From the NCBI GenBank assembly GCA_041565075.1, contig JBFGOQ010000001.1, positions 30,340-94,339 of the forward strand: DNA of 64,000 nucleotides, written 5' to 3'. The notes under the pieces were generated by a model, which was not told where the DNA came from, did not search any database, and saw only the letters and a program-made list of their open reading frames with translations. Of the stretch, positions 1-31,953 are shown piece by piece (the stretch's first letter is position 1; every line of letters begins with the position of its first letter). A program made the position numbers and the translations under genes. Source of the stretch: Gammaproteobacteria bacterium. GTDB taxonomy: Bacteria; Pseudomonadota; Gammaproteobacteria; Steroidobacterales; JABDLF01.

Positions 1-531
1 CGTGCGGTTCCTGACCCTGGGGTTACCGGTGACTGCGCCAACCCGTGGACCGTCCATGAAATGGCGCAGCAGCCACAAGGTTGCATTGGGATGCAGCAGG
101 GCGTCGCCGTCGAGGCACACCAGGAATTCATGGCGAGCGGCGAGAGCGCCCATACGCAGTCCCATGGCTTTGCCCTGGTTGCTCTCAAAGTGGATGACGC
201 GGACGCGTGAGTCGGCCGCATGCAGCTCGTCCAGCACCCGGCCCGTCTCGTCGGTGCTGCAGTCGTTGACCGCGATTACTTCAAAAACGGGATAGTTCTG
301 GCGCAACAGTGATTCGATGGTATCGCGACAGTTTTCGCCCTCGTTATGACACGGAACGATGTATGACACACCGGGGTATTCGGTCAGTCTCGGTGCCTGT
401 TCGTAAATGCCGGTATCTTTGCGCTCCCAGTGAAAATAATAGTACAGCGCGGCAATGATCCACAGATAGCCCATGAACAACGGGTAGTAATAGGCGAAAT
501 CGAAAATTGCTGCTGTATGACCGAAATCCAT
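1..531 (-). CDS. pgaC: Poly-beta-1,6-N-acetyl-D-glucosamine synthase PgaC, N-terminal 177 codons (3' end lies beyond the window start)
   Basis: This gene is absent from the ORF track because it runs off the window. My reverse-strand translation from the ATG at 531..529 reads MDFGHTAAIFDFAYYYPLFMGYLWIIAALYYYFHWERKDTGIYEQAPRLTEYPGVSYIVPCHNEGENCRDTIESLLRQNYPVFEVIAVNDCSTDETGRVLDEL...NQGKAMGLRMGALAARHEFLVCLDGDALL...PRVGAVTGNPRVRNRT. That is a family-2 glycosyltransferase with the PgaC/IcaA layout. It starts 3 nt after the pgaB stop. Confidence 0.9.
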   Translation of the reverse strand, partial: MDFGHTAAIFDFAYYYPLFMGYLWIIAALYYYFHWERKDTGIYEQAPRLTEYPGVSYIVPCHNEGENCRDTIESLLRQNYPVFEVIAVNDCSTDETGRVLDELHAADSRVRVIHFESNQGKAMGLRMGALAARHEFLVCLDGDALLHPNATLWLLRHFMDGPRVGAVTGNPRVRNRT

Positions 532-533
532 CG

Positions 534-2471
534 TCAGCGTCTCCGATGCGTGTATTCGGCCAGGGATGCGCCCTGGCGCAAGGTCTCCAGCTCGGGCCTG
601 CCTGCTATGAAATCGTCCGGATACCAGGCGAGGTGCCGAATCCCGAGACTTTGCAGCCGCCGCATTTGTGCCCTCAACATTGCCGCGTCCAGCGGCGTGT
701 CGTCACGCCAGTCGACGCTCTGTAGTTCGAAGATCACCTTGGCCGCGCCCTGCGGTGTGGCGATGACTTGCCTGGCGAGTTGCTCCAGGAATTGGTCTGC
801 ATCATTGCGATTCTCGAGAAAAGGCATCGCCATCAGGGCCACGTAGTCGTAGTTTTCCAGCGCATCCGCAAAAGACTGCGCCAGCCACAGCTCACTCTCG
901 GGCCTTAGTACGGTATCCGCAAAAAGATTTCTCGCCGTCTTCAATTCGGGCTTAAACCGTCGTACATGAGCCGCCAGCGTGACGGTGAAATCGGTAAGCG
1001 TTTGCTGCTTGTGCCGGGCCCAGGCTTGTGACGCAATCGGGTCATTGGGGAGCTCAGCGAATTGCGCCGCGGGCCCCAACACCGTAACCAGCGCCTGCCT
1101 GCCTGCAGCACTCGCGTCTTCGTACTCGTTCATTCGCGCATCGTCGTGAAACAGCAGGCCGTCAAAAGCCGTGAAGACCGCGAGGTCTTCATAGATTTCT
1201 GTGATCAGGCGTCGGTTGTCAGGGTCGAACGGCGAAAGCCGGCTTTCACCCTTGGGATCGGGGCGGGTACCGGAGAGCAAGGCTTCCTGTACCAGACGGT
1301 TGGCCTCGACACCCGGCTTTTCGAACGCCAAAACCGGCATCCAGGCAAACACGCCGACTTCGGCCCGGGTTTTCAGTTGCCAGGCCACGCGGCTGAATAA
1401 GTCGGCTCGTACCGGCATGTGGCGATTTGGAAAGTAAAGCGCCTCGGCAGCGCCGTCCGCGTCAGGGTCGGCAAACGCCTGTAAAAACACATGGCTGATT
1501 TGTAGCGCCCGAATCCGGTCGAGCAGGACGCTGAGGTTTTCTTCCTGCTGCACAGGATCGTCATCAAACACGTAGTCGAGATCCACGTGAGCGGCGCGCA
1601 CGATCTCGGGCCGGGCAGGCTGCGAGAGCACAACGGCGAGTTCGCTCGCGACGGGATTCGCTTGCACCAGGTAACGTGGAATCGTGCGAATTCTCGCCGC
1701 ACTTGCGAGACCCGTATCCAGAGTAAGGTTCACATCCAGGCCAAGACGCTCAGCGATTTCCAGCGATGCTGAGTTGTACTTGCCATACGGCCAGGTCATT
1801 GCAGCCGGCCGCGCAGACAGTTCACGCTCCATGACCGCCACGCTCCGCGCCAGGTCACGATGCAAGCGCTGCCGGTATTCCGACGCATTCTCGTAACGAC
1901 CGTCCAGGTGCAGGCGGGAAATGGCAGCCGGTAATTCATTGCCCTGGGGATTGGCGGCCACGCCCTTGTGCATATCGTGGCTGTGGGAGGCGAACTCGGC
2001 CAGCCCGGAGGCGGCCATTTCGCGAACTTCGTGCCATTGCAGGAAGTCTTCGCGGGTTTTGCGTTCGCGACCATAAGGAATGTCGGCACCGGCCGGCGCT
2101 TCCATCCAGCTGGTGACCAGGCTGAACACTGCCGGGAATCGAAAGGCACGCAACAGGGGGTAGACTCGAGTGTAGTGGCTGCGATAGCCGTCATCGAAAG
2201 TCAGCAGAATGGCTTTTGCAGGCAGTGCCGGACCGCCGGCGCTAGCGGCGCGGATCTGAGCGATGCTCACGGGTGTGTAGCCATGATCCCGCAACCAGCG
2301 GAAATGGGCAGCGAGATTTGCTGTCGAAATGGCGTATTGGTCGGGATCGTAGTCTGCGACAACCGCGTCGCGCACGTCATGGTAGGAGACGGCGGCAAAC
2401 TGTTGCGCGGCATAAGCGGGTGACAGGCCCGTCACGCACAATGCTGCGGCGAGGATGAGATGACGGCGCAT
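534..2471 (-). CDS. pgaB: PNAG N-deacetylase / export lipoprotein PgaB
   Basis: The 645-aa ORF has the signal peptide MRRHLILAAALCVTGLSPAYAA. A polysaccharide-deacetylase region (LTFDDGYRSHYT) is followed by a large C-terminal glycoside-hydrolase-like domain. Size and gene order (A-B-C) match the E. coli pga operon. The start shares one nucleotide with the pgaA stop (TGATG). Confidence 0.9.
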   Translation of the reverse strand: MRRHLILAAALCVTGLSPAYAAQQFAAVSYHDVRDAVVADYDPDQYAISTANLAAHFRWLRDHGYTPVSIAQIRAASAGGPALPAKAILLTFDDGYRSHYTRVYPLLRAFRFPAVFSLVTSWMEAPAGADIPYGRERKTREDFLQWHEVREMAASGLAEFASHSHDMHKGVAANPQGNELPAAISRLHLDGRYENASEYRQRLHRDLARSVAVMERELSARPAAMTWPYGKYNSASLEIAERLGLDVNLTLDTGLASAARIRTIPRYLVQANPVASELAVVLSQPARPEIVRAAHVDLDYVFDDDPVQQEENLSVLLDRIRALQISHVFLQAFADPDADGAAEALYFPNRHMPVRADLFSRVAWQLKTRAEVGVFAWMPVLAFEKPGVEANRLVQEALLSGTRPDPKGESRLSPFDPDNRRLITEIYEDLAVFTAFDGLLFHDDARMNEYEDASAAGRQALVTVLGPAAQFAELPNDPIASQAWARHKQQTLTDFTVTLAAHVRRFKPELKTARNLFADTVLRPESELWLAQSFADALENYDYVALMAMPFLENRNDADQFLEQLARQVIATPQGAAKVIFELQSVDWRDDTPLDAAMLRAQMRRLQSLGIRHLAWYPDDFIAGRPELETLRQGASLAEYTHRRR

Positions 2472-5008
2472 CAGAAACGCCCCCTCAGGCCGCCAGTGAA
2501 AAACGTGCCATATTCGAAGGTGCCGTCATACAAAGCGCGGACACGCCTCAAGCCATAATGAAATTGCAGCGCTTCCGATAATTGCAGAATATGCTGATAT
2601 TCGATGCTGCCCACGTTGCCGCCGGCGAAACCACTTTGCGTGTAGCGTCCCGCGTTAAACAGCAGTCGGTGCTCGAAGCTGCGCTCATAGCGCCGATAAA
2701 GTCGCCAGCGGCTGTCGATGCCGAGACTTATTGACCGATCCGAGGACGGGCTGAAGTAGCCGACATCGCTCCGGTCATTTGCAGATGCGAACAGGTTGCC
2801 GGTCAGATCAATTTTCCACGCCGGCCGGTTGAGAATCCGCCTGCTTGCGTCGAGCAACCACGCGGTGCGGAAGTTGCCATCGGAAAAATCCATGGCTTCG
2901 CCAGAGAGTCCGACTCTCAGCGTTTCGTTGCGTCGATAGCGGGCACTCATTCGCAGCCGATCGGCATCTGTGCCCTGGCGATAGGCGCGCAGGGGCAGGG
3001 CATGCGATGCCGATTCGATGAGTCCGTCGAAACGCCACCGGTCATTAACTTCCCAGCCATAACCCGCAGACAGCCCGGTCCTGGCGTCGCCCTCGAGGCT
3101 GCTTACAATTGTCGCGTAGGCGCTGTGGCCGGGTTGCCGATATGCAATGCCCAAACCAGCACGGCGCCGCCTGGCAACACCTTCGCTGAATTCGGCTCGG
3201 GCATCGTGCAGTTGGGCGAAAGGTCGCCACCGGTAACCCGTGCCGCCGAGATAAACACGAGCATCGGATTGGTGTTGCCGGCTGCCGAATTGCTCGCCCG
3301 AACTTTCACCGCCATCGGCGTCGATGACAATCTCGTTGCGATGATAGAGTTCATGACGCCTTGCCAGGCGTCTGACGCCCGGATGGTCGGCGTAGTCCGC
3401 CTGCAAGCCGGCAAATCGGCGCTCAAATTCCTGCCCGCGGTGCAGGTCGAGGAGCGCATTGGCGAGGCCAACCTGTGCACTGAGTAACTCGGGCTCGACC
3501 GCGTCGACCTGGCGATATTCGAAAAGGGACTGACGTGGCCAGCCGCGCCATCGGTACACGTTAGCGAGTTCCTGGCGTATGTCGGTGTTATGTGGCGCTT
3601 CCAACAGCATGTCACTGAGCGTGGCTTCGGCGGCCTCCAGCTGATCGGCGTAGGCGTAACTCAGTGCGAGGGCGATTTCGGCTTTCAATCGACGCGGGTT
3701 ATGCTTGATGACCCGCGATCCTGGCACGCTCCGCCAAATTGCCTGCGATGCTACGAGTGCCTCGGAAACCGAGCGCGCGGCAGCATGGTTTTCGAGTTCC
3801 ACCAGCGCATAAAACCGCTCAAGGTTTAAATCGAAATCTTCCCCGGCAGTGGCCAGTGCGAGGTCATAGAGTCGCCGTGCTTCTTCTGGTTCGCGCAAGG
3901 CGAGCCGCGAGCCCGCGACCGAGCGCAGTACATATACCGGGAGCGATTCATCCGGCAGACCGAGTTCATGATAGACAGCGACGACATCTTCGTGACGGGC
4001 ACGAGCGCGCAGGGCGACAATCCGGTCGAATTGGGTTACCTGCCAAAGCGGTGAGTCTGCGGGGAAGCGCGCCAGGTTAGCGTCGAGCAGTCGCAGCGCC
4101 TCGTCAAGGTCCCGGAAGCGTTCATTGCCCTGTGCTCGTGAACGCTCGCCCCAGCGAACCCAAAGTGCGGCGCGATCTGCATACAGCGTGTCAAGCTCGG
4201 CTTCGTCGGCGAGCCCGGGATACCTGGCGGCAAGTGCCAATGCCTGTTGCGGCAACAGCATTGCCTGCAAGGTATGCAATTTCCCGCGCAAGGCTTCCCG
4301 GTTGTGCGCCTCACGATCCAATATCCGGTCATAAGCTGTCAGCGCCTCAGGGTGATTGCCCGAGCTGCGCAACAAGTAAGCATTGATCAGCCCGCCACGC
4401 ACGGAATTCCTGAATGTGTCGTTCAAAGATTCAAATGCAGCGCGCGCCTCAACCGGCCGACCCGCGTCGGCATAGGTCAGCGCGAGACCGGCCAGGGCAT
4501 CCATCGCATGCGGATCCTGTGTCAACGTCAATTGATACCAGTTGACGGCGGCGTCGAAGTCGCCGACACCACGAGCAGAGCGTGCGACTGCTTGCAGCAC
4601 GTAGGCGGGTGCGGTTTGGGTTTGCAGCTGCGGGGCGAGTGCCAGTACTCGCCGGTATGATCCTTGCCAGGAAAGGACACTGAGAAGATCGTGCAACGCC
4701 GCTTGCCCGCCGCTTGCCGATGCGTTGATGGCTTCCAGAATGCGTACTGCAGAATCGACGCGTTCGGCGCGAGCGAGGCTGACGGCGTGCGTGCGACGCT
4801 GATCACCGGTCAGGCCAAGCAAGTTGCGGCCGACCTCAATGCGTGTGCTCAGAGTGAGCTTGGGCTCTGGCGATAGTATTTCGGCGCCGGCCGAACAGGC
4901 GAGCGCCCCCATCATGAGCAGGGTCAGCGCCCGTCCGATTCCTTGTCCTGCCAGGTGACGCATATCTCGCCAATTTCCGGGATTGCCGCGCGGCAATGCT
5001 AGTGACAT
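2471..5008 (-). CDS. pgaA: PNAG outer-membrane export porin PgaA (TPR domain plus beta-barrel). The probable true start is Met16 at 4963.
   Basis: The ORF is 845 aa. Its N-terminal half is helical and TPR-like. Its C-terminal half has beta-barrel-like alternation and ends ...FFTGGLRGRF. From MRHLAGQGIGRALTLLMMGALACSAGA the sequence reads as a signal peptide. It is the first gene of the pgaABC order. Confidence 0.85.
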   Translation of the reverse strand: MSLALPRGNPGNWRDMRHLAGQGIGRALTLLMMGALACSAGAEILSPEPKLTLSTRIEVGRNLLGLTGDQRRTHAVSLARAERVDSAVRILEAINASASGGQAALHDLLSVLSWQGSYRRVLALAPQLQTQTAPAYVLQAVARSARGVGDFDAAVNWYQLTLTQDPHAMDALAGLALTYADAGRPVEARAAFESLNDTFRNSVRGGLINAYLLRSSGNHPEALTAYDRILDREAHNREALRGKLHTLQAMLLPQQALALAARYPGLADEAELDTLYADRAALWVRWGERSRAQGNERFRDLDEALRLLDANLARFPADSPLWQVTQFDRIVALRARARHEDVVAVYHELGLPDESLPVYVLRSVAGSRLALREPEEARRLYDLALATAGEDFDLNLERFYALVELENHAAARSVSEALVASQAIWRSVPGSRVIKHNPRRLKAEIALALSYAYADQLEAAEATLSDMLLEAPHNTDIRQELANVYRWRGWPRQSLFEYRQVDAVEPELLSAQVGLANALLDLHRGQEFERRFAGLQADYADHPGVRRLARRHELYHRNEIVIDADGGESSGEQFGSRQHQSDARVYLGGTGYRWRPFAQLHDARAEFSEGVARRRRAGLGIAYRQPGHSAYATIVSSLEGDARTGLSAGYGWEVNDRWRFDGLIESASHALPLRAYRQGTDADRLRMSARYRRNETLRVGLSGEAMDFSDGNFRTAWLLDASRRILNRPAWKIDLTGNLFASANDRSDVGYFSPSSDRSISLGIDSRWRLYRRYERSFEHRLLFNAGRYTQSGFAGGNVGSIEYQHILQLSEALQFHYGLRRVRALYDGTFEYGTFFTGGLRGRF

Positions 5009-5073
5009 ACAGACAAAATTTTAGCACCGGCAGGGTGGCAGGCCGAGGAAAAACTCTAATAAATTCCGCAGTT

Positions 5074-5089
5074 TGTGACGGGCGTCACG
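5074..5089. promoter_or_regulatory. CRP-family operator-like palindrome TGTGA-CGGGCG-TCACG upstream of pgaA
   Basis: The sequence gtTTGTGACGGGCGTCACGtt was read directly at 5072..5091. The arms GTGACG/CGTCAC are a perfect inverted repeat. The site lies 66-118 bp upstream of the two candidate pgaA starts. A TAAAAT -10-like hexamer (minus strand) lies at 5023..5018. Confidence 0.5.
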
Positions 5090-5152
5090 TTAATGGGGTG
5101 TTTTGTATCCGGGGAACGCCCAGGGGCAGGGCCCCCTGGACCGGCCGCCGGC

Positions 5153-6208
5153 TCAGGCGTCGTCCGCCTGGTCCTCGCTGTCGGGCTCGGCCACGTCCAT
5201 ATCCTTGAAGTGCAGGCAACGATTGGCGCCTGACTTCTTGGCTTCGTAAAGGGCATTGCGACCACGGGAAATGAGGGTGCGGCTGCCGGTTATGTTTTGA
5301 ATTACCGGTGACTCATCGGTCATTGTGACAATGCCCAGACTGACGGTAACCGGCCGCAGCGGCCACTCCATCGCAGCAACCGATTTGCGCAGCCGATCAG
5401 CCTTGATCATGGCCCCTTCGGCATCTGTATGTGGCAGCACAAAGGCGAATTCATCGCCGGCAAATCGTGCCACATAGTCGGTGCTGCGCGTATCCTTGAG
5501 AATTATCTCCGAAACCAGCTTGATGAGTTCATCACCGGCATGGTGACCATGCTCGGCGTTGTAACCTTTGATGTCATCGATGTTTACAAACACCAGTGAC
5601 AACATGCTGTGATGGCGCAGTGAGCGCTGAAATTCTCTTTCCAGGTGTTCGTTAAAGGCCCGGCGGTTTTTCATGCCGGTAAGCTCGTCCGTGACGGTGG
5701 TGGCCACCAGGCGCGCGTGGGCAACCCGGAGCTGGGTTTCTTTGTCGGCGAGATCTTTGCGCGTCTTGATGAGATCGCTCACATTACGCGCCAGAGCCAC
5801 ATAGCCGCTGATCTCACCTGCCGCATCACGCGTTGCATGCAGTGACATGCGCACGGGGAAATGGCTGCCATCGCGGCGCACGCAATTCCATTCCTGTTCG
5901 TCGGGAATGCCTTCGCGGGCCCGGAATACGAAAACTTCGAAGCCGGGCTCGATGCGTTCACCGACTTCTTCGGATAGGCGCCGGGCGCGACGGGTTATTT
6001 CGCGGGGTTCATGCAGTATCGCCGGCGCGATTTTGCCGCGCAGTTCTTCGAGGGAATAACCGAGTTGATGCAGGCCTCCGGCACTGACATCACGAATTAC
6101 TCCATGCGGGTCGAGCGACATCAGGAGATAATCTCGGCTGTCGAGAATGGCGCTCTGCCAGGTTCCGTCCGTTAGGAAATCGGATGACGTCTCGGTTTGC
6201 CTGTTCAT
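5153..6208 (-). CDS. PAS-domain diguanylate cyclase (GGDEF domain with an AGDEF active-site variant and an intact RxxD I-site)
   Basis: The ORF is 5153..6241, with a likely start at MNRQTETS (6208). The N-terminal PAS-like region includes LMSLDPHGVIRDVSAGG...EELRGK. The GGDEF domain includes DELTGMKNRRAF...VFVNIDDIKGYNAEHGHHAGDELI...RSTDYVARFAGDEFAFVL, with RSTD exactly 5 residues before AGDEF. Confidence 0.85.
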   Translation of the reverse strand: MNRQTETSSDFLTDGTWQSAILDSRDYLLMSLDPHGVIRDVSAGGLHQLGYSLEELRGKIAPAILHEPREITRRARRLSEEVGERIEPGFEVFVFRAREGIPDEQEWNCVRRDGSHFPVRMSLHATRDAAGEISGYVALARNVSDLIKTRKDLADKETQLRVAHARLVATTVTDELTGMKNRRAFNEHLEREFQRSLRHHSMLSLVFVNIDDIKGYNAEHGHHAGDELIKLVSEIILKDTRSTDYVARFAGDEFAFVLPHTDAEGAMIKADRLRKSVAAMEWPLRPVTVSLGIVTMTDESPVIQNITGSRTLISRGRNALYEAKKSGANRCLHFKDMDVAEPDSEDQADDA

Positions 6209-6596
6209 ATACGTTCCCTGAGCAAATCGCAAAACACCCACTCTTGCTCCCGCAAGAGATGGGAAATGGCATGCCTGGGTTGTTGGAATCCCGGCATGCC
6301 CACATGCCTGACAAGATTCTGCAATTCAGCGTTCCCTGCCAGACGCCCCCGAAGCCTGCTTTTGGCGGTGCTCCGAAACTGGCTGTAATCATGCCTGCTT
6401 GGACCCGCTGCTGGAATCGGGGTTTCCCTGAAATCTCCCATTTTGTGATGCAGTACTCACAATTTTTTCGCTGCCGTCGTGGCAGCCTGCTGCGGGAGCT
6501 ACCCGGAAGTAGCCCGGAGTGCTTTGGCTGGTGGCATGAACATGCGAAAATACCCATGCGCCGGGCCCGGGCTGACGATAGACAAAGCGAGAATTA

Positions 6597-8425: not shown

Positions 8426-9883
8426 TCAGGTTTCCTCGTCGATAATCATCACCAGCTCTATGCGCCGGTTGCGTGCGCGCCCTTCCTTGGTTTCGTTATT
8501 TGCGATCGGCTGTTCTTCACCGTGTCCGACTGCAGCGATCTGACCCGGGTTGAGACGCAAGTTGACTATCAGGTACTGGCGCACGGCTTCGGCACGCTCG
8601 TGCGACAGATTCAGGTTTTTCTGATCGCTGCCGAAGGAATCTGTGTGACCCTCGACCACCAGGCGGGCACGAGGAAATACCCGAATGGCGCTCGAAACTT
8701 TCGCCAGTAACGGGAAGTTTTCTGCACTGATATCGGCTTTGCCTACGTCGAATCTGAGGCCCACCAGGCGCAGAATTATCTTGCCCGATTCCCTCAGAAC
8801 CGCCGCTTCATCGCTATCAAACATTGCCTCAATCTGCCGAAATCGTTGCCGCAAATGTTCCTGGCGGGCAAGTTCTTCTTGCAGAACCGAACGTTCCCTG
8901 GCCACTCCGCCGAGCCGCTGTTCGAGATCGCGGATTTCCAGTTCCATCTGGGCCAGCTGCTGCTCGCGGTCGGTCAAGGCAGTTACCAACCCGGCGATTT
9001 CTGACTGGCGGGCACGAATGTACTCGGTTATGGCAAGCGCTACCGGACCCGGTCCCTCATGGAAATTAGCCGCGAGATCCGCTGCGTCGGCAATGCCCGC
9101 CATAGTCTTCTCCCATTGCAAAACCAGGGATTCCTGGGTCAGGCGGCCTTCGCGAATGTCATCGAATATGCGCGCCAGAAAAATCGCATGACGCGCTTCG
9201 ATGTTTGCAGCCCGGGCCAAGGCACGTGGCCGATCGGCATCGTAGCGGTCTTCTGTTAGCGCCGCATCCGCTTCCCGGAGCAAGGCGTCGGCCTGGGCCA
9301 GCGTTTGCGGCGCATAGCGCTCAGCACGCAAAGCCCGTGCCTCGGCCAGCAGCTTGCGAGTATCAGCTAACAAGACTTGCTTGATGGCAGCCAATTCGGC
9401 ATTGCGATAGCCGCTTGCAAGGCGTTGGTCAAAAGTGGCCAGATCGCGATTGCGGCCCCTTTCAAGATCATTGGCGAGCTTTAGTAAGTCCTGATCGGTT
9501 TCCGCAAAAAGAACCGGGGCACGTTGGTCGGCCTCCGATGACAACGCGTCTTTTCTGGCTTGCAGGGCGCCAGACAAGCCCGGCGAAATTCTGGCGGACT
9601 GGCTGATTGCCGCTTCAAGGGACTCACTTGCCACTGTGATGTCAGCGCGAATCTTTTCCAGCGACTGGCCGCGCGCCAGGCGTTCTTCCGCATCCCGGTA
9701 AGCCTCCTGCGCACGACTAAAATTGCGTGGTGCGAGCAATTCTGCCTGTGCCTCACGAGCCTCAATAAGCAGCTTGTCCACCTGGCCGAACAAGCTCGCC
9801 CGCAAGTCGGCATCGGCGGCCAGCGCCACGACGCTCAGCAAGCCCAGCAGACTCAAGACAAGCCAAAATTTGATTGCATTCAT
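8426..9883 (-). CDS. OmpA/MotB-family peptidoglycan-binding protein with a long coiled-coil N-terminal region
   Basis: The C-terminal OmpA-like domain reads LVVEGHTDSFGSDQKNLNLSHERAEAVRQYL...GRARNRRIELV. The signal peptide MNAIKFWLVLSLLGLLSVVALA begins at the internal Met (9883). The track ORF's 59-aa leader would run into the upstream gene. Confidence 0.8.
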   Translation of the reverse strand: MNAIKFWLVLSLLGLLSVVALAADADLRASLFGQVDKLLIEAREAQAELLAPRNFSRAQEAYRDAEERLARGQSLEKIRADITVASESLEAAISQSARISPGLSGALQARKDALSSEADQRAPVLFAETDQDLLKLANDLERGRNRDLATFDQRLASGYRNAELAAIKQVLLADTRKLLAEARALRAERYAPQTLAQADALLREADAALTEDRYDADRPRALARAANIEARHAIFLARIFDDIREGRLTQESLVLQWEKTMAGIADAADLAANFHEGPGPVALAITEYIRARQSEIAGLVTALTDREQQLAQMELEIRDLEQRLGGVARERSVLQEELARQEHLRQRFRQIEAMFDSDEAAVLRESGKIILRLVGLRFDVGKADISAENFPLLAKVSSAIRVFPRARLVVEGHTDSFGSDQKNLNLSHERAEAVRQYLIVNLRLNPGQIAAVGHGEEQPIANNETKEGRARNRRIELVMIIDEET

Positions 9884-12339: not shown

Positions 12340-14532
12340 CTAAATTGCCTCGAGGTTCGCCCTGGTATCCGGCCCTTTCTTGCCTGGCTTGAAATCCAGG
12401 TGCAGCGGCAACTCCCGCGCATTCATTTCAGGTCCGAGGAACTGACCCTGAAGATAGCGGCAACCATTGTCCTTGAGCCACTGGGCCTGGACATCGCTGG
12501 TAACCCCGACAGCACAAACTTCGAGGTTGAGTGAATTGGCCATGTCAATTACTGCCTTGACGAATTGCCGCAGTCTCTCGTCGGTGCTGACATTTCTGAT
12601 AAACCGTGGATTCAACTTGATGCCACGGGCGGGTACACGCTGCAGATTGAGCAAAGATGCAGATCCGGAGCCGAACTGGTCGATCCAGATTTCGAATCCG
12701 GCCTCGTTCCATTTGCGCAATATGCTGACGCTTTCACCCGAAGCCGAAATGATCCGGTCTTCACTGGCTTCGATGCGGATATCACGCGGGCCGAGCTCCC
12801 ATTGCGCTAACAATCCGGTGACCAGATCGGGCAGATCTTCACGCAACAATTGTCGCGACGAAATATTGATGGACACGAACAGGCCGTCGAGACCCTGATC
12901 TCTCCATTTGGCCAGATCTGCGCATACCCGTGCCAGGGCCCAGCGGCCCAGCCGCTCGATCTCACCCGATTTCTCGGCGACTTCAATAAATTCTGCGGCT
13001 TTTATAAGCCCGCGCTTGGGATGATGCCATCGGACCAGGGCTTCTGCCCCAATCGTTCTGCCGCTGCCGGCAGCAACTATTGGCTGGTAATGGACCGTAA
13101 GGCCTTCGCTGTCCAGCGCACGACGAAGGTCGTTGATCATAAACAATTTGTCTCGAGTTTCTTCGAACATGAAATCTTCGTAGAAGTGAAACGCGTGCTT
13201 GCCGCGACGTTTAGCGTGATACATCGCGACATCTGAATGTGCCAGCAGAGTCTCAGCGTCCCGCCCGTCTTCAGGAAAGGTGGCAATGCCAATGCTGGCG
13301 CCGATATAAACTTCGTGCCCGTTAACATTAAACGGCTCACGCAGTGTCTTCAGCACCGCAGCCGCCACGATGCCAGCCTGTTGCCGGTCCTGCAGGTTTT
13401 CCAGGATCACGGTGAATTCATCGCCGCCCAGTCGCGCCACGGAGTATTTCCCCTGGTGGCCAACACGCCACGTCGATGCAGGCTCACTGTCCAGGCAGTC
13501 GATGAGGCGTTGTGCCGTGCTGATCAGCAGTGCGTCGCCGGCATCGTGCCCCAGGGTGTCGTTAACGGGCTTGAAATCGTCGAGATCGATGAACAGGACC
13601 GCGCCCCCGACCTTGCCCGTCCGACAGTTAATGCAAAGTTGTGCCAGCGAATCCAGCAAGCTCGCGCGGTTGGGCAAGCCGGTCAGAGGATCATGATAGG
13701 CGAGAAACTCAATTTCTTTCTGACTGGACTCGAGGTCCTGGCTCATGCCCCGGAAGGCCAATGCAAGATCACCGATTTCGTCGTTCCTGCCGACCACGAC
13801 ATGGTGATCAAAGTCGCCCTTGCCCAGTTGTCTTGCCTGCCTGGCCAGGTCGCGAATCGGACTCGCCAGCTTGCGGCCTGTGACCAGGGCGAGCAGGGCG
13901 CCGGCCAGCACGAAGACCAGGGTGAAAATGCCGGCATAAGTCAGTTCCTTGCGCAGCCGTTGGCCGGTCAGCGCACTGAGGTTGTTTCGCAGGCCTGCCG
14001 ATTCGGCGGCAACTACATCCAACGAGAGCCCGACCGCAACCCCTCCCAGATGTTCGTCGCCAAGCTTGACGGGTCTGACAATGTGGAGGATTTCCCCGTC
14101 GCGAACCAGGTGCAATTCGCGGGTGGCGCCTGCATCCCAGCCCAGCAGTTCGTCAAGCTGCTGACCGTAAGACGCGATCGCGGGACTGCCGTCATGGACG
14201 ATTGCACCTTGCGCGTCGTAGACGTAGGCGAACACCACGTCGCGCTGCGCCACTGTCGTCGAGAGATACTCCAGCATTCTTTGCAGATTCAGGGCGAATA
14301 AGGGGTTAGTGAGATTTTGCACCAGGTATTGCGTCATGATCCGGCCCCGCTCTCTGACCTGTTCCTCGAGATGCGCCTCGATGGCCTCGCTGGTGACGTT
14401 TTGGACTTCCCCTGCAGCAGACTTGAACTGCCAGACTGACAGCAGAGAAAGACCGATCATGCTGACGAGTATGACGAGCAGAATTTGCACGAAATAGCGT
14501 GTTTGCAAGTTGATGCGAATGCGCTTGTTCAC
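12340..14532 (-). CDS. Membrane sensor HAMP-GGDEF-EAL protein (canonical GGDEF, degenerate EAL)
   Basis: The ORF is 730 aa. An N-terminal TM helix, a periplasmic region and a second TM helix are followed by HAMP (PIRDLARQARQLGKGDFDHHV...IGDLALAFRGM). The GGDEF domain reads ...ARLGGDEFTVIL. The EAL domain has EALVRW, but DQFGSGS replaces DDFGTG, KLN replaces KID, and AVGVTS replaces AEGVET. Confidence 0.9.
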   Translation of the reverse strand: MNKRIRINLQTRYFVQILLVILVSMIGLSLLSVWQFKSAAGEVQNVTSEAIEAHLEEQVRERGRIMTQYLVQNLTNPLFALNLQRMLEYLSTTVAQRDVVFAYVYDAQGAIVHDGSPAIASYGQQLDELLGWDAGATRELHLVRDGEILHIVRPVKLGDEHLGGVAVGLSLDVVAAESAGLRNNLSALTGQRLRKELTYAGIFTLVFVLAGALLALVTGRKLASPIRDLARQARQLGKGDFDHHVVVGRNDEIGDLALAFRGMSQDLESSQKEIEFLAYHDPLTGLPNRASLLDSLAQLCINCRTGKVGGAVLFIDLDDFKPVNDTLGHDAGDALLISTAQRLIDCLDSEPASTWRVGHQGKYSVARLGGDEFTVILENLQDRQQAGIVAAAVLKTLREPFNVNGHEVYIGASIGIATFPEDGRDAETLLAHSDVAMYHAKRRGKHAFHFYEDFMFEETRDKLFMINDLRRALDSEGLTVHYQPIVAAGSGRTIGAEALVRWHHPKRGLIKAAEFIEVAEKSGEIERLGRWALARVCADLAKWRDQGLDGLFVSINISSRQLLREDLPDLVTGLLAQWELGPRDIRIEASEDRIISASGESVSILRKWNEAGFEIWIDQFGSGSASLLNLQRVPARGIKLNPRFIRNVSTDERLRQFVKAVIDMANSLNLEVCAVGVTSDVQAQWLKDNGCRYLQGQFLGPEMNARELPLHLDFKPGKKGPDTRANLEAI

Positions 14533-15482
14533 GGTGCCCCCGGCATTTCGGCCGGCGCTGCGCTAACGGCATCCCGTATGTTGCGCAGAGCGATTCGGGA
14601 TTCGCGGTCCAACTCGTCGAACCTGGTAGTCATCTGGTAGGCCAGAAGCGCGTCACGTGCTTTCGGATCATCGTGCGCCGCGAGCAAAATCTCTTTGATT
14701 GCGGTTTTGACACGGTGATTTAAGCTGGCCCGCACGAGCTCGACTGCCCTTGGGATTGGTGGGCTCGTATACACAATCTTCATGTCATTACGCGCGTTTT
14801 CCGGGATCAGGTCTTTCTGTTCCCAGTCGAGATCGCTGAGGACACCCGCATTTATCAGGCCCTTGTGCACCCACATGGCGGTGTTGTATTCGGCATTTGA
14901 AAATATATAGCTGACGGAGTCGGATGTGGGTCTTTCCCGTACCGATCTCATGGGTCTGAGCGCCAGGCCTTCTGCCAGCATCGCCGCACGGGGCACAAAG
15001 AAGCCGGTTGTCGAGCCCGGGTGCTGAAAGGCAATGCTGCCGCCTTGCAGGTCGCGCAGGCTGTCGATACCGCTGTCCTTGCGAACAAAAATCACACTTT
15101 TATAGACAGGTACGCCATGCTTCCATTTGCGCAGCAGAATTTCGGCGTCGGCATGCTTTTCCAGCATGGCTGCCGAGTAGGCGGTTTCGGTAACCCAGTC
15201 AACCCGGCCGTCACGCAGGAATCGAATCATCTGTTCGTGACTTTCGGCAATCTGAATATCCACGTTTTGCACACCTAGAGGTGCCAGCATGGTGGTCATG
15301 TATTCGGCCAGCGGCTTCATGGCACTGATGTGTCGTTGCGGGTCGTCGCTGATGGCTGCCATGACCACGAGCCGTGGAATCTGTTCAGCATCGCGCGCCC
15401 AGGTCGCCTGGCACGCACACAGCGCGGCCAGGAAAATCAGTAAGGCTTTACTGCAGGCTATATTGCGCCGGCGGTTGAACAT
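14529..15482 (-). CDS. Periplasmic PhnD-like (phosphonate-bd family) substrate-binding protein
   Basis: The likely start is MFNRRRNIACSKALLIFLAALCACQA (15482). The core reads VYKSVIFVRKDSGIDSLRDLQGGSIAFQHPGSTTGFFVPRAAML, which is typical of the PhnD-type binding fold. The stop overlaps the downstream GGDEF-EAL start (ATGA at 14532..14529). Confidence 0.65.
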   Translation of the reverse strand: MFNRRRNIACSKALLIFLAALCACQATWARDAEQIPRLVVMAAISDDPQRHISAMKPLAEYMTTMLAPLGVQNVDIQIAESHEQMIRFLRDGRVDWVTETAYSAAMLEKHADAEILLRKWKHGVPVYKSVIFVRKDSGIDSLRDLQGGSIAFQHPGSTTGFFVPRAAMLAEGLALRPMRSVRERPTSDSVSYIFSNAEYNTAMWVHKGLINAGVLSDLDWEQKDLIPENARNDMKIVYTSPPIPRAVELVRASLNHRVKTAIKEILLAAHDDPKARDALLAYQMTTRFDELDRESRIALRNIRDAVSAAPAEMPGAP

Positions 15483-15576
15483 CGGGTCTTCCCAAGCAGG
15501 CAAAGTCAGCACGCAGGCAACATCAGCGCCGCGCGTGACAGGTGAATGAATTATGACAAATAGGAACTTGCGTTCG

Positions 15577-15594
15577 ATGTGATGCCTATCACAT
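15577..15594. promoter_or_regulatory. Perfect CRP-type box ATGTGAT-GCCT-ATCACAT
   Basis: Read directly: cgATGTGATGCCTATCACATtaaaa. It equals TGTGA-N6-TCACA with 7-bp perfect arms. It lies in the divergent region between the binding-protein operon (start 15482) and small gene A. On the minus strand a CATAAT hexamer (15555..15550) lies 22 nt after the core, which is a class-II-like geometry. Confidence 0.65.
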
Positions 15595-15673: not shown

Positions 15674-15687
15674 CCAGTTCACAGATT
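15674..15687 (+). promoter_or_regulatory. CCAGTTCACAGATT motif, copy 1 (contains a TCACA half-site 21 nt upstream of the TAGATT -10-like hexamer at 15705..15710)
   Basis: An identical 14-mer recurs at 18536..18549, upstream of the paralogous small gene. Confidence 0.4.
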
Positions 15688-15718
15688 GTTGGATGCAATT
15701 TCGCTAGATTGTCGCGCC

Positions 15719-15916
15719 ATGGCAATTTCCTACTACACGAGTTTTCTCGTTGAAGACCCTGATTGCGATGATTTTCGGCACATTAGCGGTGTCCTTGATC
15801 TGCAGCAGCCGCCAGCGCGATCTTTATGCGATGCTGATCTGCGTGCGATCCTTGCGCAAGGCCTTAACGTCGGCAGCGAGAATATACAACTGGTGTGCTG
15901 GTCGGCGCTGCATTAA
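15719..15916 (+). CDS. Small protein of unknown family, paralogue A (65 aa)
   Basis: MAISYYTSFLVEDPDCDDFRHISGVLDLQQPPARSLCDADLRAILAQGLNVGSENIQLVCWSALH. It aligns without gaps over all 65 residues with the product of 18673..18870 (20 identities plus many conservative pairs). Synonymous differences in the shared TSFLV block argue for protein-level selection. The track ORF begins at TTG 15686, so the start is uncertain. Confidence 0.6.
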   Translation: MAISYYTSFLVEDPDCDDFRHISGVLDLQQPPARSLCDADLRAILAQGLNVGSENIQLVCWSALH

Positions 15917-18535: not shown

Positions 18536-18549
18536 CCAGTTCACAGATT
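18536..18549 (+). promoter_or_regulatory. CCAGTTCACAGATT motif, copy 2
   Basis: This is an exact repeat of the 14-mer at 15674..15687. It lies 124 nt upstream of the ATG of small gene B. Confidence 0.35.
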
Positions 18550-18622
18550 TTTCGCATTTAGTGTGACCTGCGTCTGAGTTTTGTTGACCGGCCAGTACCG
18601 CCGGTTGCGACACGAACATGTT

Positions 18623-18638
18623 TGTGACTCCAGTCACG
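18623..18638. promoter_or_regulatory. CRP-type box TGTGA-CTCCAG-TCACG upstream of small gene B
   Basis: Read directly: atgTTTGTGACTCCAGTCACGGc. It shares TTTGTGAC....GTCACG with the pgaA site. A TATGGT -10-like hexamer at 18659..18664 lies 20 nt downstream, and the ATG is at 18673. Confidence 0.5.
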
Positions 18639-18672: not shown

Positions 18673-18870
18673 ATGGGCGCAAAATTTCACACCAGTTTTC
18701 TAGTTCAGGACATCGGCTCCAGCCTGTGTCGCGAGGTAAACGCGGTCGTCGAAGTCAGCCGTCTGCCCGGCGCCATGCTCGAGCAGGAGGACATCGAGCA
18801 GATTCTGACGGACAGCCTTGAAATCGAGGCCGCGGAGTTGCGACTCATTCACTGGTCACGCCTGCACTGA
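18673..18870 (+). CDS. Small protein of unknown family, paralogue B (65 aa)
   Basis: MGAKFHTSFLVQDIGSSLCREVNAVVEVSRLPGAMLEQEDIEQILTDSLEIEAAELRLIHWSRLH. It is a gapless paralogue of the product of 15719..15916. The track ORF starts at ATG 18646, so the start is uncertain. Confidence 0.6.
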   Translation: MGAKFHTSFLVQDIGSSLCREVNAVVEVSRLPGAMLEQEDIEQILTDSLEIEAAELRLIHWSRLH

Positions 18871-21018: not shown

Positions 21019-21061
21019 CTTGACGCACGTCACTGACGCCGATTGGAGGCACCGCTATAAT
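21019..21061 (+). promoter_or_regulatory. Putative crp promoter (-35 CTGACG 21033..21038, 17-nt spacer, -10 TATAAT 21056..21061) with an overlapping CRP-like box CTTGA-CGCACG-TCACT (21019..21034)
   Basis: Read directly: ccTTGACGCACGTCACTGACGcc...gcTATAATcc. The inverted repeat TGACG-CA-CGTCA is present. The box-to-(-10) gap is exactly 21 nt, which is class II spacing. Confidence 0.5.
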
Positions 21062-21093: not shown

Positions 21094-21765
21094 ATGCGCA
21101 GTCCGCCCGTCGAACGCACGGACATTCCGGCGCTCAAGAGCTTCGTGGAATACTGCCGCGTGAGGCATGCGCCGTCGCGCAGCATGATTATCCATGCTGG
21201 CGACGTCTCCGACAGCCTGTTCTACGTCCTTGAAGGATCCGTCGAGGTCATGATCGAGGATGAGGACGGCAAGGAAATCGTGCTCGCCTATCTGAACCCC
21301 GGGCACTTTTTCGGTGAGATGGGGTTTTTTGCCGGACAAACCGAACGCACGGCCTGGGTTCGCGCCCGCACAGACTGCCGGGTTGCGGAAATGACCTACG
21401 TGCGTTTTCGCCAGTTCGCGGATGAAAATCCCGAACTGGTTATGGAGCTGGCTGTGCAGCTCGCCACCCGTCTTAGCCGCACCAATCGCAAAATCGGGGA
21501 TCTGGCATTTCTCGATGTTACCGGTCGCGTGGCCCATGCTCTGATGAACCTCGCCGATGAACCTGATGCTGTGTCGGTGCCGGGCGGTATGGCGGTGTCC
21601 GTTACGCGTTCGCAGCTTGCCCGACTGGTAGGATGCACCAGAGAAATGGTGGGTCGGGTGCTCAAGATCCTGGTCGATCAGAATCTCATTGAAGACCAGG
21701 GCCGCGTCCTGGTGGTCTTGCGCCGGCCCGAGCCGGCGTCTGAGGAAGTCGAACAGGCCGGTTAA
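21094..21765 (+). CDS. crp: CRP/Vfr/Clp-family global transcription regulator
   Basis: The 223-aa ORF is collinear with E. coli CRP. The cNMP pocket reads GEMGFF...ERTAWVRARTDCRVAEMTY. The HTH region reads DLAFLDVTGRVAHAL...VTRSQLARLVGCTREMVGRVLKIL and keeps the R-E...R recognition residues that read TGTGA. Confidence 0.9.
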   Translation: MRSPPVERTDIPALKSFVEYCRVRHAPSRSMIIHAGDVSDSLFYVLEGSVEVMIEDEDGKEIVLAYLNPGHFFGEMGFFAGQTERTAWVRARTDCRVAEMTYVRFRQFADENPELVMELAVQLATRLSRTNRKIGDLAFLDVTGRVAHALMNLADEPDAVSVPGGMAVSVTRSQLARLVGCTREMVGRVLKILVDQNLIEDQGRVLVVLRRPEPASEEVEQAG

Positions 21766-30250: not shown

Positions 30251-30372
30251 GCCAAAGCCTCCGGCCGGCTGGTTTTGGATTGTAACCGTATTTATGCCGC
30301 CCAAGGCTCGTACCGGTGGGGCTTTGGGTTTACACTGTCGGCATACGCCCCGGGGGCAAGAGCGGAGTAGCT

Positions 30373-31953
30373 GTGTCCGAGCTGGAGGATACCGGCATTT
30401 ATGTGGCGGTAGGGGCTGGTGAAGCCGAATCGATCCCGATGGCTCCCACCTCAATTACCGCATTCGTCGGTCGCGCCCGTCGCGGCCCGGTCAACTTTCC
30501 CCTGACCATCGACAGTTTCGACGAATTCGAGCGCCTTTTCGGCAGTCTGTGGATGCCGAGTACGATGAGCTATGCAGTGCGCCATTTCTTTCTGAACGGT
30601 GGCCGCCAGGCAATCATCGTGCGGGTCATCAATGGCGGCCGGCATAACACCATCCAACTGCCGGCCGGCCACGACGTACTTGTGCTCGCTGCCCGGCACC
30701 CGGGCACCGGGGAGGTGCTGCGCGCCGCAGTCGACTACGACAACATCCCGGAAAAATCCAACAGCTTTAATCTTACGATTCAACGGGTGCGCGGCGTCGG
30801 TTCCACGATTGTGGAAGACCAGGAGATTGTCAATCGTGTTTCCATGCGTGCTGAGTCGCAACGCTTCGTCACTGATGTGCTGCATGACTCCAACCTGGTC
30901 CGCGTGCGTGATGGGGTGCCGACAGCGCGGCCGGAGCCCACCGCCAATTCCGGCCATGGCGAGCAGCGTGGCTACGTGACGTCGGCCAGCGATGGTGATG
31001 ATGGCCGTCCTCTTTCCGACAATGACATTATTGGTTCGGAGCGCGAGCAAACCGGGCTGCATGCTCTGAAGACGGGGCCACGCTTCAATCTCCTGTGCAT
31101 TCCGCCGCTGTCACGAAACCATGACCTGGGATTCGCGGCCATGCGCTTCGCGGCCGAATTCTGCCGCCGCAACAAGGCCCTGTATGTGGCTGATCCGCCG
31201 TCGATCTGGCGCTCGCCGGATGACGCCATAGCCGGTTTGAGCGATCTGGGTCTCAGCAATGAGAACGCGGCACTGTTCTACCCACGGCTTATCATGGACG
31301 ACGAGGCCCAGGGTGGCCGCTCGGAGTTTGCCCCCTGTGGCACGGTTGCGGGCCTGCTGGCGCGCTGCGACGAAAATGCCGGGCCCTGGGAAAGCCCTGG
31401 CTTGAGCCATGCACCGCTGCGTGGCGTGCGTAGATTTGCGGATGAAGTCGATGACTACGAATGCGAGAGCCTGATAGCGAGCGGGATCAATTGCCTGCGC
31501 GCCCATGGGCGCAGCATCCGGGTGCTGGAGGGCGATCGCACCCTGGGCGGTGCCGATTGCCCGGCGCCGGAATGGCGCAGTCTTTCTAAGCGGCGTTTTG
31601 CAATGATGGTCATCGACAGCGTGCGGGAAGGCACCGGATGGGCAGCATTTGAAAAGAACGATTCCGAATTGTGGTACCGGCTGCAGGGCAAGGTCGAAGA
31701 ATTTCTCATGCGCTGCCATGCACTGGGTGCCTTTGGCAACCTCAAACAAAGCCAGGCATGGTTTGTGAAGTGTGACCGCGAGACCACCACCGAGGAGGAC
31801 CGCCGCAAAGGTCGTGTCAACGTGGTGGTGGGTCTGGCGCAAGATCGGCCGTCGGATTTTCTGGTGATTAATATCAGTCAGCCGGTGCAGCCATTGACAG
31901 ACGAGGATGCGTTCGCCGAAGCCAGCCTGGCCAGTTATGATGCGCTCGCCTGA
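30373..31953 (+). CDS. Contractile-tail sheath family protein (phage / eCIS sheath homologue), orphan
   Basis: The N-terminus reads TGIYVAVGAGEAESIPMAPTSITAFVGRARRGPVNFPLTIDSFDEFERLFG. The mid-region reads FNLLCIP...ALYVADPP...AALFYPRL. The C-terminus reads GINCLRAHGRSIRVLEGDRTLGG...WRSLSKRRFAMMVIDSVREGTGWAAFEKNDSELWYRLQGKVEEFL...AWFVKCDRETTTEED..GRVNVVVGLAQDRPSDFLVINISQ. Together these are the canonical sheath signature blocks. A GTG start at 30373 follows GGAG (30364..30367). Confidence 0.8.
   Translation: MSELEDTGIYVAVGAGEAESIPMAPTSITAFVGRARRGPVNFPLTIDSFDEFERLFGSLWMPSTMSYAVRHFFLNGGRQAIIVRVINGGRHNTIQLPAGHDVLVLAARHPGTGEVLRAAVDYDNIPEKSNSFNLTIQRVRGVGSTIVEDQEIVNRVSMRAESQRFVTDVLHDSNLVRVRDGVPTARPEPTANSGHGEQRGYVTSASDGDDGRPLSDNDIIGSEREQTGLHALKTGPRFNLLCIPPLSRNHDLGFAAMRFAAEFCRRNKALYVADPPSIWRSPDDAIAGLSDLGLSNENAALFYPRLIMDDEAQGGRSEFAPCGTVAGLLARCDENAGPWESPGLSHAPLRGVRRFADEVDDYECESLIASGINCLRAHGRSIRVLEGDRTLGGADCPAPEWRSLSKRRFAMMVIDSVREGTGWAAFEKNDSELWYRLQGKVEEFLMRCHALGAFGNLKQSQAWFVKCDRETTTEEDRRKGRVNVVVGLAQDRPSDFLVINISQPVQPLTDEDAFAEASLASYDALA

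Follow-up and report, generated by a model that had tools for sequence, protein, structure and literature searches.

A predicted CRP operator upstream of the pga exopolysaccharide genes of an uncultured sediment gammaproteobacterium

A short palindrome lies upstream of pgaA in the 64-kb stretch of DNA analyzed here (the window), which comes from an uncultured gammaproteobacterium, and we consider it likely that this box is the operator of a class I promoter by which the pgaABC(D) operon for the exopolysaccharide poly-N-acetylglucosamine (PNAG) depends on CRP, the cyclic AMP (cAMP) receptor protein. The predicted operator occupies 5074..5089 and reads CGTGACGCCCGTCACA on the pga (minus) strand, or TGTGACGGGCGTCACG as a 16-mer on the plus strand, with its predicted centre at -70.5; the window at 5072..5091 is tttgtgacgggcgtcacgtt. 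An earlier note, made from the letters of this DNA, had described a palindrome at 5072-5091 with perfect GTGACG/CGTCAC arms lying between the stop codon of a cyclase gene and pgaA. Both the sequence and the arms are exact (GTGACG at 5075..5080 and CGTCAC at 5083..5088 are exact reverse complements of each other), and Pfam identification of the two flanking genes, both on the minus strand, bears out the location: the box is in the non-coding gap 4964..5152, 64 nt past the stop codon of a GGDEF gene. Compared with the CRP consensus TGTGA-N6-TCACA, the box agrees at 9 of 10 positions, with G5, G7, and A8 present in both halves; the sole mismatch is at position 4 of the distal half, where the pga strand has C for T. 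The motif is observed directly. An AAC flank at 5071..5073 (minus strand), whose columns are invariant in the nine-way alignment described below, lengthens the promoter-proximal half-site to GTCACAAAC; this 9-mer has a single other occurrence within the window, at a second box at 18623, a recurrence compatible with a preference particular to the regulator of this lineage. Because a conserved candidate CRP site stands before the PNAG genes, biofilm matrix production is probably coupled to nutritional state in this uncultured sediment bacterium.

Matches to TGTGA-N6-TCACA with at most one mismatch number three in the 64 kb (5074, 15578, which is perfect, and 18623), where 1.14 are expected. Taken over the whole window this count is not significant alone, as 10 of 100 shuffled sequences also reach three, and a reading of the box as a functionless chance match to the consensus can draw on that figure. 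We find such a reading scarcely credible, as the matches are exclusively intergenic: all three fall in intergenic DNA, for which 3000 first-order Markov simulations predict 0.115 (P ~3e-4; intergenic DNA amounts to 5.8 kb, or 9% of the window, under a longest-open-reading-frame gene model). This restriction to intergenic DNA is likewise a direct observation. The earlier note had named an equal frequency of such matches inside coding DNA as evidence against an operator; within the window we found three in intergenic DNA and none in the 58 kb of coding DNA. Chance is further contradicted by footprinting, in which both the position and the register of the box are conserved in 9-10 diverged lineages, and in each relative the pga box is the only match with at most one mismatch in a locus of 3-8 kb.

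For this footprint, the DNA upstream of pgaA from eight relatives (PgaA 55-59% identical) was combined with the window into a nine-way alignment. The relatives are metagenome-assembled genomes or contigs labelled Gammaproteobacteria, and two are from sand (a beach-sand metagenome and a "Mix_sand" isolate). All eight keep CGTGA-N4-CGTCACAAAC (CGTGA-N4-CGTCACA) on the pga strand; both parts are invariant, and the four central bases vary. Mean pairwise identity is 0.85 in the box and 0.36-0.41 in the flanking intergenic DNA, rises to 0.72 in the A/T-rich 30 bp that follow the box, and reaches 0.80 in a 9-mer of the form TGnTAnnnT, of which the T, G, T, A, and final T are invariant. The gap from the box to this TG is 46 or 47 nt in all nine lineages; a variable spacer within the box and a fixed distance from it to an extended -10 element are thus plainly seen in the alignment.

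Conservation of this kind also bears on whether the palindrome is instead a structural element, be it a repeated extragenic palindrome or a hairpin or terminator that closes the GGDEF transcript at its 3' end, which we judge very improbable. Such an element is suggested by the arms, which in the window form a perfect 6-bp inverted repeat shortly after a stop codon. The perfect 6-bp arms are, however, particular to the window; the fifth and sixth arm pairs are not kept in the relatives, there is no compensatory change for the loss of pairing beyond 4 bp, and what is retained is the sequence of the half-sites and not their ability to pair. In addition, the loop would measure 2-4 nt with no U-tract after it, a terminator scan was negative, the RNA fold was no better than that of shuffled sequence (z = -0.95), four intergenic regions yielded no family of direct or inverted repeats, and the whole window gave no Rfam match at gathering thresholds. 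A terminator, hairpin, or RNA structure was rejected on the grounds of fold, loop, missing U-tract, unconserved arms, and Rfam. Since the half-site sequence is conserved, the spacer is free to vary, and compensatory changes are absent, the box is best read as a protein-binding site.

More distant relatives were less uniform. In L024 (PgaA 40% identical), a perfect box, TGTGACCTGGTTCACA, lies 113 bp upstream of pgaA and is the only match with at most two mismatches in 7.4 kb. Even with one mismatch allowed, there is no box in L002-L009 (PgaA 33-35% identical), most of which carry the label delta proteobacteria, Desulfuromonadales, or Geobacteraceae. L023 (PgaA 42% identical) is uninformative, with 12 bp only upstream of pgaA. 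Proteins of the window's own organism were matched only in Logan assemblies from a few runs. A scan of genome contigs for pgaA relatives gave a single close relative, L001, and a protein-based scan of JGI metagenome contigs for pgaA relatives gave none. When the JGI contigs were scanned at the DNA level with a pattern of the 20 invariant bases, two loci were returned (L025 and L026), neither beside pga and both uninformative; the match in L025 falls inside a coding region. At L026 5167..5194 (plus strand), CGTGATCTACGTCACAAACCGCCGAATTT corresponds to the box and the start of the A/T-rich block, about 100 bp upstream of an open reading frame (ORF) whose N-terminus, judged by eye, is coaD-like (phosphopantetheine adenylyltransferase); this match may be either chance or a related operator.

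Downstream of the box, the TAAAAT hexamer (pga strand; plus-strand coordinates 5023..5018) is part of the extended -10 element TGCTAAAAT (5018..5026, minus strand, reading from 5026 to 5018), which follows the TGnTAnnnT pattern of the nine lineages. There is no recognizable -35 element, and a generic -35/-10 scan found no canonical promoter. The earlier note had put the box about 70 bp upstream of TAAAAT; the hexamer does exist, but the box centre (5081.5) is 58.5 bp from its 5' edge, and a distance of ~70.5 bp is reached at the predicted transcription start near 5011, a position that assumes a start 7 nt after the hexamer. This puts the box centre at a predicted -70.5 in the window and -69.5 in lineages with the 46-nt gap. 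Class I CRP sites are centred near -61.5, -71.5, -82.5, or -92.5, on one helical face and upstream of the polymerase footprint, and from the region around -70 CRP activates class I promoters by contacting the C-terminal domain of the RNA polymerase alpha subunit. Between box and -10 element is the conserved A/T-rich block CGGAATTTATTAGAGTTTTTCC (5047..5068, minus strand; about -57 to -36), which has a pairwise identity of 0.72 and is unique in the window. UP elements, which stimulate transcription via alpha, are A/T-rich stretches at about -57 to -38. The block resembles such an element, for instance that of rrnB P1, and from its position and composition we propose it as the docking place of the alpha C-terminal domain; a second regulator might instead bind there.

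The same geometry speaks to the sign of regulation. CRP could bind the box and repress or dampen pga, with high cAMP favouring the planktonic state, either by holding the alpha C-terminal domain in an unproductive state or by stopping transcription that reads through from the GGDEF gene. Repressing CRP sites, however, normally overlap the core promoter, and a site near -70 combined with a weak core promoter lacking a -35 element and a UP-like block is a classical activating architecture; moreover, the strictly conserved spacing to the -10 element is what would be expected of activation that depends on the face of the helix. We therefore regard repression as quite improbable, with Acinetobacter baumannii supplying the evidence in its favour. 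There, cAMP and Vfr alter the activity of a Ppga reporter in a study that used RNA-seq and a 1-kb promoter fusion, with no binding site mapped; pgaABC was down at high cAMP in the RNA-seq, and the promoter fusion changed in the opposite direction (PMC11410210).

The candidate regulator of the pga promoter is encoded in the window itself, by crp (21094..21765, plus strand; 223 aa), whose product passes the NCBIfam CRP equivalog cut-off with 275.1 bits against 266. Its identity as CRP is directly observed in this and in the PDB comparison, which gave matches to E. coli CRP (3e-70), Pseudomonas Vfr (1e-64), and Xanthomonas Clp (3iwz; 1e-45). The earlier note had credited the window with a CRP homologue retaining the R-E...R residues, and the recognition helix, CTREMVGR, does align these with R180, E181, and R185 of E. 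coli CRP. In that alignment the DNA-contact residues R169, R180, E181, R185, and K188 are all kept. Among the cAMP contacts, G71, E72, R82, and T127 are kept, S83 is replaced by T, and S128 is replaced by N. The loop of activating region 1 (AR1; 156-164) aligns without gaps as AVSVPGGMA versus AMTHPDGMQ in E. coli (T158 to S, H159 to V, G162 kept), and there are basic residues at the positions of activating region 2. As to the ligand, the note had proposed control of either a cyclic-nucleotide or a Clp type. The first half of that proposal is favoured: because the regulator resembles CRP and Vfr more than Clp and clears the cut-off of the CRP equivalog model, control by cAMP appears preferable to Clp-type control, and the Clp half is disfavoured.

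A genuine operator could still serve a different regulator, such as a Crp/Fnr paralogue, a c-di-GMP (cyclic di-GMP)-sensitive Clp-like factor encoded outside the window, or an unrelated dimeric protein, or CRP could act together with a second factor bound to the A/T-rich block. This is unlikely in our estimation, though it has the conservation pattern to recommend it, which is asymmetric and wider than the CRP core (no base of CGTCACAAAC changes, and identity is still 72% over another 30 bp); in addition, the 64 kb are all of the genome that is visible, and c-di-GMP enzymes are abundant nearby. Against it, the half-sites match exactly what an R180/E181/R185 helix, as kept in the CRP of the window, recognizes, the other good matches in the window are at class II distances from plausible -10 elements, and the window protein is, as noted, a CRP by equivalog score and nearer to CRP and Vfr than to Clp. 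Motif, intergenic enrichment, footprint, and a regulator of the CRP equivalog agree with one another, and they lend support to the earlier prediction of a CRP-type operator at a class-I-like distance.

In the mechanism that we favour, activation of pga by CRP at a class I promoter, a dimer of the 21094..21765 product, presumably loaded with cAMP, would bind CGTGA-N6-TCACA ~70.5 bp upstream of the pgaA transcription start and contact the alpha C-terminal domain of RNA polymerase seated on the A/T-rich block (about -57 to -36). Polymerase would thereby be recruited to a promoter with an extended -10 element (TGCTAAAAT) and no -35, and high cAMP, for example under carbon limitation, would turn on the genes for PNAG export and synthesis. 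Post-translational control of the enzyme would then fall to the PAS-GGDEF protein encoded next door and to other c-di-GMP enzymes, of which some also lie behind CRP boxes.

Several points weigh against this mechanism. CRP binding, cAMP as the ligand, the transcription start, activation, and the step involving the alpha C-terminal domain and the UP-like element are all matters that we infer from sequence. The predicted centre, which shifts with the lineage and with the distance assumed between -10 element and start, lies within 1-2 bp of the classical -71.5 face and is not demonstrably on it. When up to two mismatches are allowed, the whole window shows no enrichment (15 observed versus 20 expected), and no adenylate cyclase was found among the scanned proteins of the 64-kb window. 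The conserved pattern is also asymmetric, with a distal CGTGA in place of TGTGA and with CG before TCACA and AAC after it invariant; such a pattern goes beyond the canonical needs of CRP and may point to a different protein or to an additional constraint. Finally, the sign of regulation is not transferable from A. baumannii, because its two data sets disagree.

Other CRP-like sites in the window extend the picture to c-di-GMP genes in part. The earlier note had counted closely related boxes at three other c-di-GMP-related promoters. Such a small regulon touching c-di-GMP genes is borne out only in part: the box at 15578 is perfect and that at 18623 has one mismatch, the rest (18562, 6444, and 21019) are weaker, and the partner that the 18623 box keeps in a relative is a 65-aa ORF and not the GGDEF-EAL gene. 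The perfect box, TGTGATGCCTATCACA (15578..15593), lies ~42.5 bp upstream of the predicted start of a minus-strand operon (12340..15512) that encodes a periplasmic binding protein and a HAMP-GGDEF-EAL protein and has the extended -10 element TGTCATAAT; with its positioning read from sequence, this box appears to be at a class II-like position. The second, TGTGACTCCAGTCACG (18623..18638), lies between a 7TM-PAS-GGDEF-EAL gene on the minus strand and a 65-aa ORF on the plus strand (18673..18870), its centre 42.5 nt upstream of the ATG of the latter; a weak match with two mismatches is found at 18562. In L021 (CRP 71% identical), TGTGAACTGGCTCACG precedes the orthologous ORF at the identical distance, and there is no adjoining c-di-GMP gene. 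Since box and ORF are kept in this arrangement and the c-di-GMP gene is not, the 18623 box more probably drives a leaderless transcript of the small ORF than a c-di-GMP gene. Upstream of crp itself, the weak CRP-like site CTTGACGCACGTCACT (21019..21034, plus strand; three mismatches) is 21 nt upstream of a perfect TATAAT (21056..21061), and in L022 (CRP 65% identical) a perfect box at 8833..8848 lies 160 bp upstream of its own crp; the 21019 site may indicate autoregulation of crp.

The 65-aa ORF has a paralogue in the window: the ORFs at 15719..15916 and 18673..18870, both on the plus strand, are 31% identical (E 6e-13), and both end in ...HW(S)xLH. L021 has an orthologous pair at 5433..5630 and 5743..5940. 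Neither Pfam nor NCBIfam gave a match to the 65-aa ORFs; a profile search returned 98 cluster representatives at E <=0.001, most of them of 63-66 aa. In both organisms the ATG of the MGAK-type ORF is preceded by a CRP box, centred 42.5 nt away, and by a -10-like hexamer at 8 nt, a geometry that suggests a CRP-dependent leaderless mRNA, and at the corresponding position the MAIS-type ORF has just a TTCACA half-site. The 13-mer CAGTTCACAGATT occurs in both small-ORF upstream regions (15676..15688 and 18537..18549, plus strand), on opposite sides of the respective CRP boxes, and may be a relic of the duplication behind the paralogous ORFs.

The pga genes in the window are all on the minus strand. 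pgaA (2471..4963) encodes an 830-aa PNAG export porin (Pfam PgaA_barrel, 7.6e-52, and TPR repeats), its start being most probably the ATG at 4963 and not 5008, given an identical 830-aa database protein; pgaB (534..2471) encodes the PNAG deacetylase/hydrolase (Pfam GHL13, 8e-125, and Polysacc_deac_1); and the 5' part of pgaC, a glycosyltransferase gene (1..531), is cut by the window end and was assigned by Pfam Glycos_transf_2 (1e-29) and synteny with relatives. A further candidate site, CGAGATATGCGTCACC at 4954..4969, overlaps the pgaA start codon and scored highly with an orthologue-derived matrix, but its left half is poor and we rejected it as coincidence.

Transcripts from the predicted start near 5011 would have a leader of ~48 nt (4964..5011, minus strand) before the ATG at 4963, with a GC-rich stem-loop, ATTGCC-GCGC-GGCAAT. 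Among L014-L020, the leaders (~50 nt) of most relatives fold, as single sequences, into an inner GC-rich hairpin, and in several an outer helix forms between the 5'-most bases of the transcript and the stretch that immediately precedes the start codon (CAGCT/AGCTG in L016, L018, and L019; CAGCC/GGCTG in L014; CGGCC/GGCCG in L015). The outer helix looks like an instance of covariation. RNAalifold on a MAFFT alignment of the pgaA leaders gave no consensus structure, and the z-scores of the single-sequence folds run from +0.3 to -3.0, which are weak statistics.

The gene directly upstream of pgaA, identified by Pfam, encodes a PAS-GGDEF protein (5153..6208, minus strand; the ORF extends to 6241, and the probable start at 6208 gives 351 aa). 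It has AGDEF for GGDEF at the active site, as does its counterpart in L001, and an RxxD I-site five residues upstream; the protein could be either an active cyclase or a c-di-GMP sensor. A PAS-GGDEF gene is directly upstream of pgaA in all three relatives with an annotated upstream gene (L015, L016, and L017), and L001 has a GGDEF-type coding sequence in the matching place. After the GGDEF stop codon there is a GC-rich stem-loop without a U-tract (5118..5141, minus strand), predicted by folding and not called as an intrinsic terminator, which may be a structure at the transcript end. Upstream of the PAS-GGDEF gene lies the weak CRP-like site TGAGTACTGCATCACA (6444..6459, minus strand; two mismatches), which in the alignment corresponds to TGAGn-N6-TCACA in two relatives (L016 and L017) and is missing from the third (L015). 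In the same divergent intergenic region, between lipA and the PAS-GGDEF gene (6242..6596), the block AGGGAAACCCCGAT at ~6410..6440 on the minus strand is kept in all four lineages; it is partly palindromic (GGGAnAnCCC), stands just downstream of the 6444..6459 site, and may be an operator for another regulator. Elsewhere in the window, in otherwise housekeeping surroundings, a 545-aa ORF (30316..31953, plus strand) weakly matches a phage tail sheath subtilisin-like domain (Pfam E 8.7e-8); its orthologous place in L021 is taken by an unannotated 493-aa gene, followed by an NYN-domain gene.

PNAG is a widespread biofilm matrix polymer, and what is well established about its transcriptional control comes mainly from E. 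coli (NhaR, CsrA) and a few pathogens; no direct CRP operator at a pga promoter has been mapped in the literature that we examined. Links between cAMP-CRP or Vfr and PNAG are already published; what is new here is a predicted direct CRP operator at pga, in an uncultured clade. This is an expected sort of regulation by a very well-known regulator, and the gain is incremental. If CRP does bind, the locus would offer a testable case of nutritional (cAMP) control placed above c-di-GMP-gated PNAG synthesis in environmental bacteria, with a compact promoter of ~80 bp in which each element is defined by phylogenetic footprinting. As a tentative extension, about which we are undecided and lean slightly to doubt, cAMP-CRP might be a direct, ancestral PNAG switch in a clade of uncultured sand and sediment Gammaproteobacteria, acting via a dedicated class I promoter made up of CRP box, UP-like block, and extended -10, and also driving genes for c-di-GMP turnover and for a family of uncharacterized 65-aa proteins translated from leaderless mRNAs, a module from cAMP to c-di-GMP to matrix that is undescribed for pga.

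Among known systems, the proposed promoter resembles the class I promoters of E. coli, such as lac P1, with its CRP site at -61.5, and malT, with one near -70.5. It shares with them a single site of the TGTGA-N6-TCACA type, here with a predicted centre at about -70.5, a weak core promoter with A/T-rich DNA in between that could seat the alpha C-terminal domain, and a regulator with matching recognition-helix residues. It differs from lac P1 and malT in that its target would be a biofilm exopolysaccharide operon and not a catabolic gene, that the core has an extended -10 without a -35, that the distal half is CGTGA with invariant CG and AAC flanks, and that the geometry is predicted. In Xanthomonas, c-di-GMP inhibits DNA binding by the CRP-like protein Clp, which recognizes sites of the TGTGA-N6-TCACA type and is tied to exopolysaccharide and biofilm traits under c-di-GMP control. 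Overall scores place the regulator in the window far nearer to CRP (3e-70) and Vfr (1e-64) than to Clp (1e-45).

In E. coli, pgaABCD is controlled by NhaR at the level of transcription, and c-di-GMP acts on PgaCD. The window has the same operon, and a diguanylate cyclase, neighbouring or dedicated, might plausibly supply an allosteric input; in contrast to E. coli, a CRP-type operator would stand in the place of the LysR-type activator. The E. coli operon is also subject to CsrA, which, in work cited within two papers, acts on a 234-nt leader (PMC4549057, PMC8151843); the predicted leader in the window, unlike that one, is short (~48 nt), and GGA motifs form no consistent array in it. In Yersinia pestis, CRP promotes biofilm that depends on PNAG (Hms); two papers describe the effect as indirect, through CsrA among other routes, and report no CRP site at hmsHFRS (PMC4549057, PMC6867900). 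A 2020 review of cAMP-CRP in biofilms leaves pga unmentioned (PMC7247823). There is also a likeness to pgaABCD of A. baumannii, in that a cAMP-dependent regulator of the CRP family affects transcription from a gammaproteobacterial pga promoter, as we predict for the window; the window differs in the discrete, conserved operator and the promoter geometry that can be predicted for it from sequence alone.

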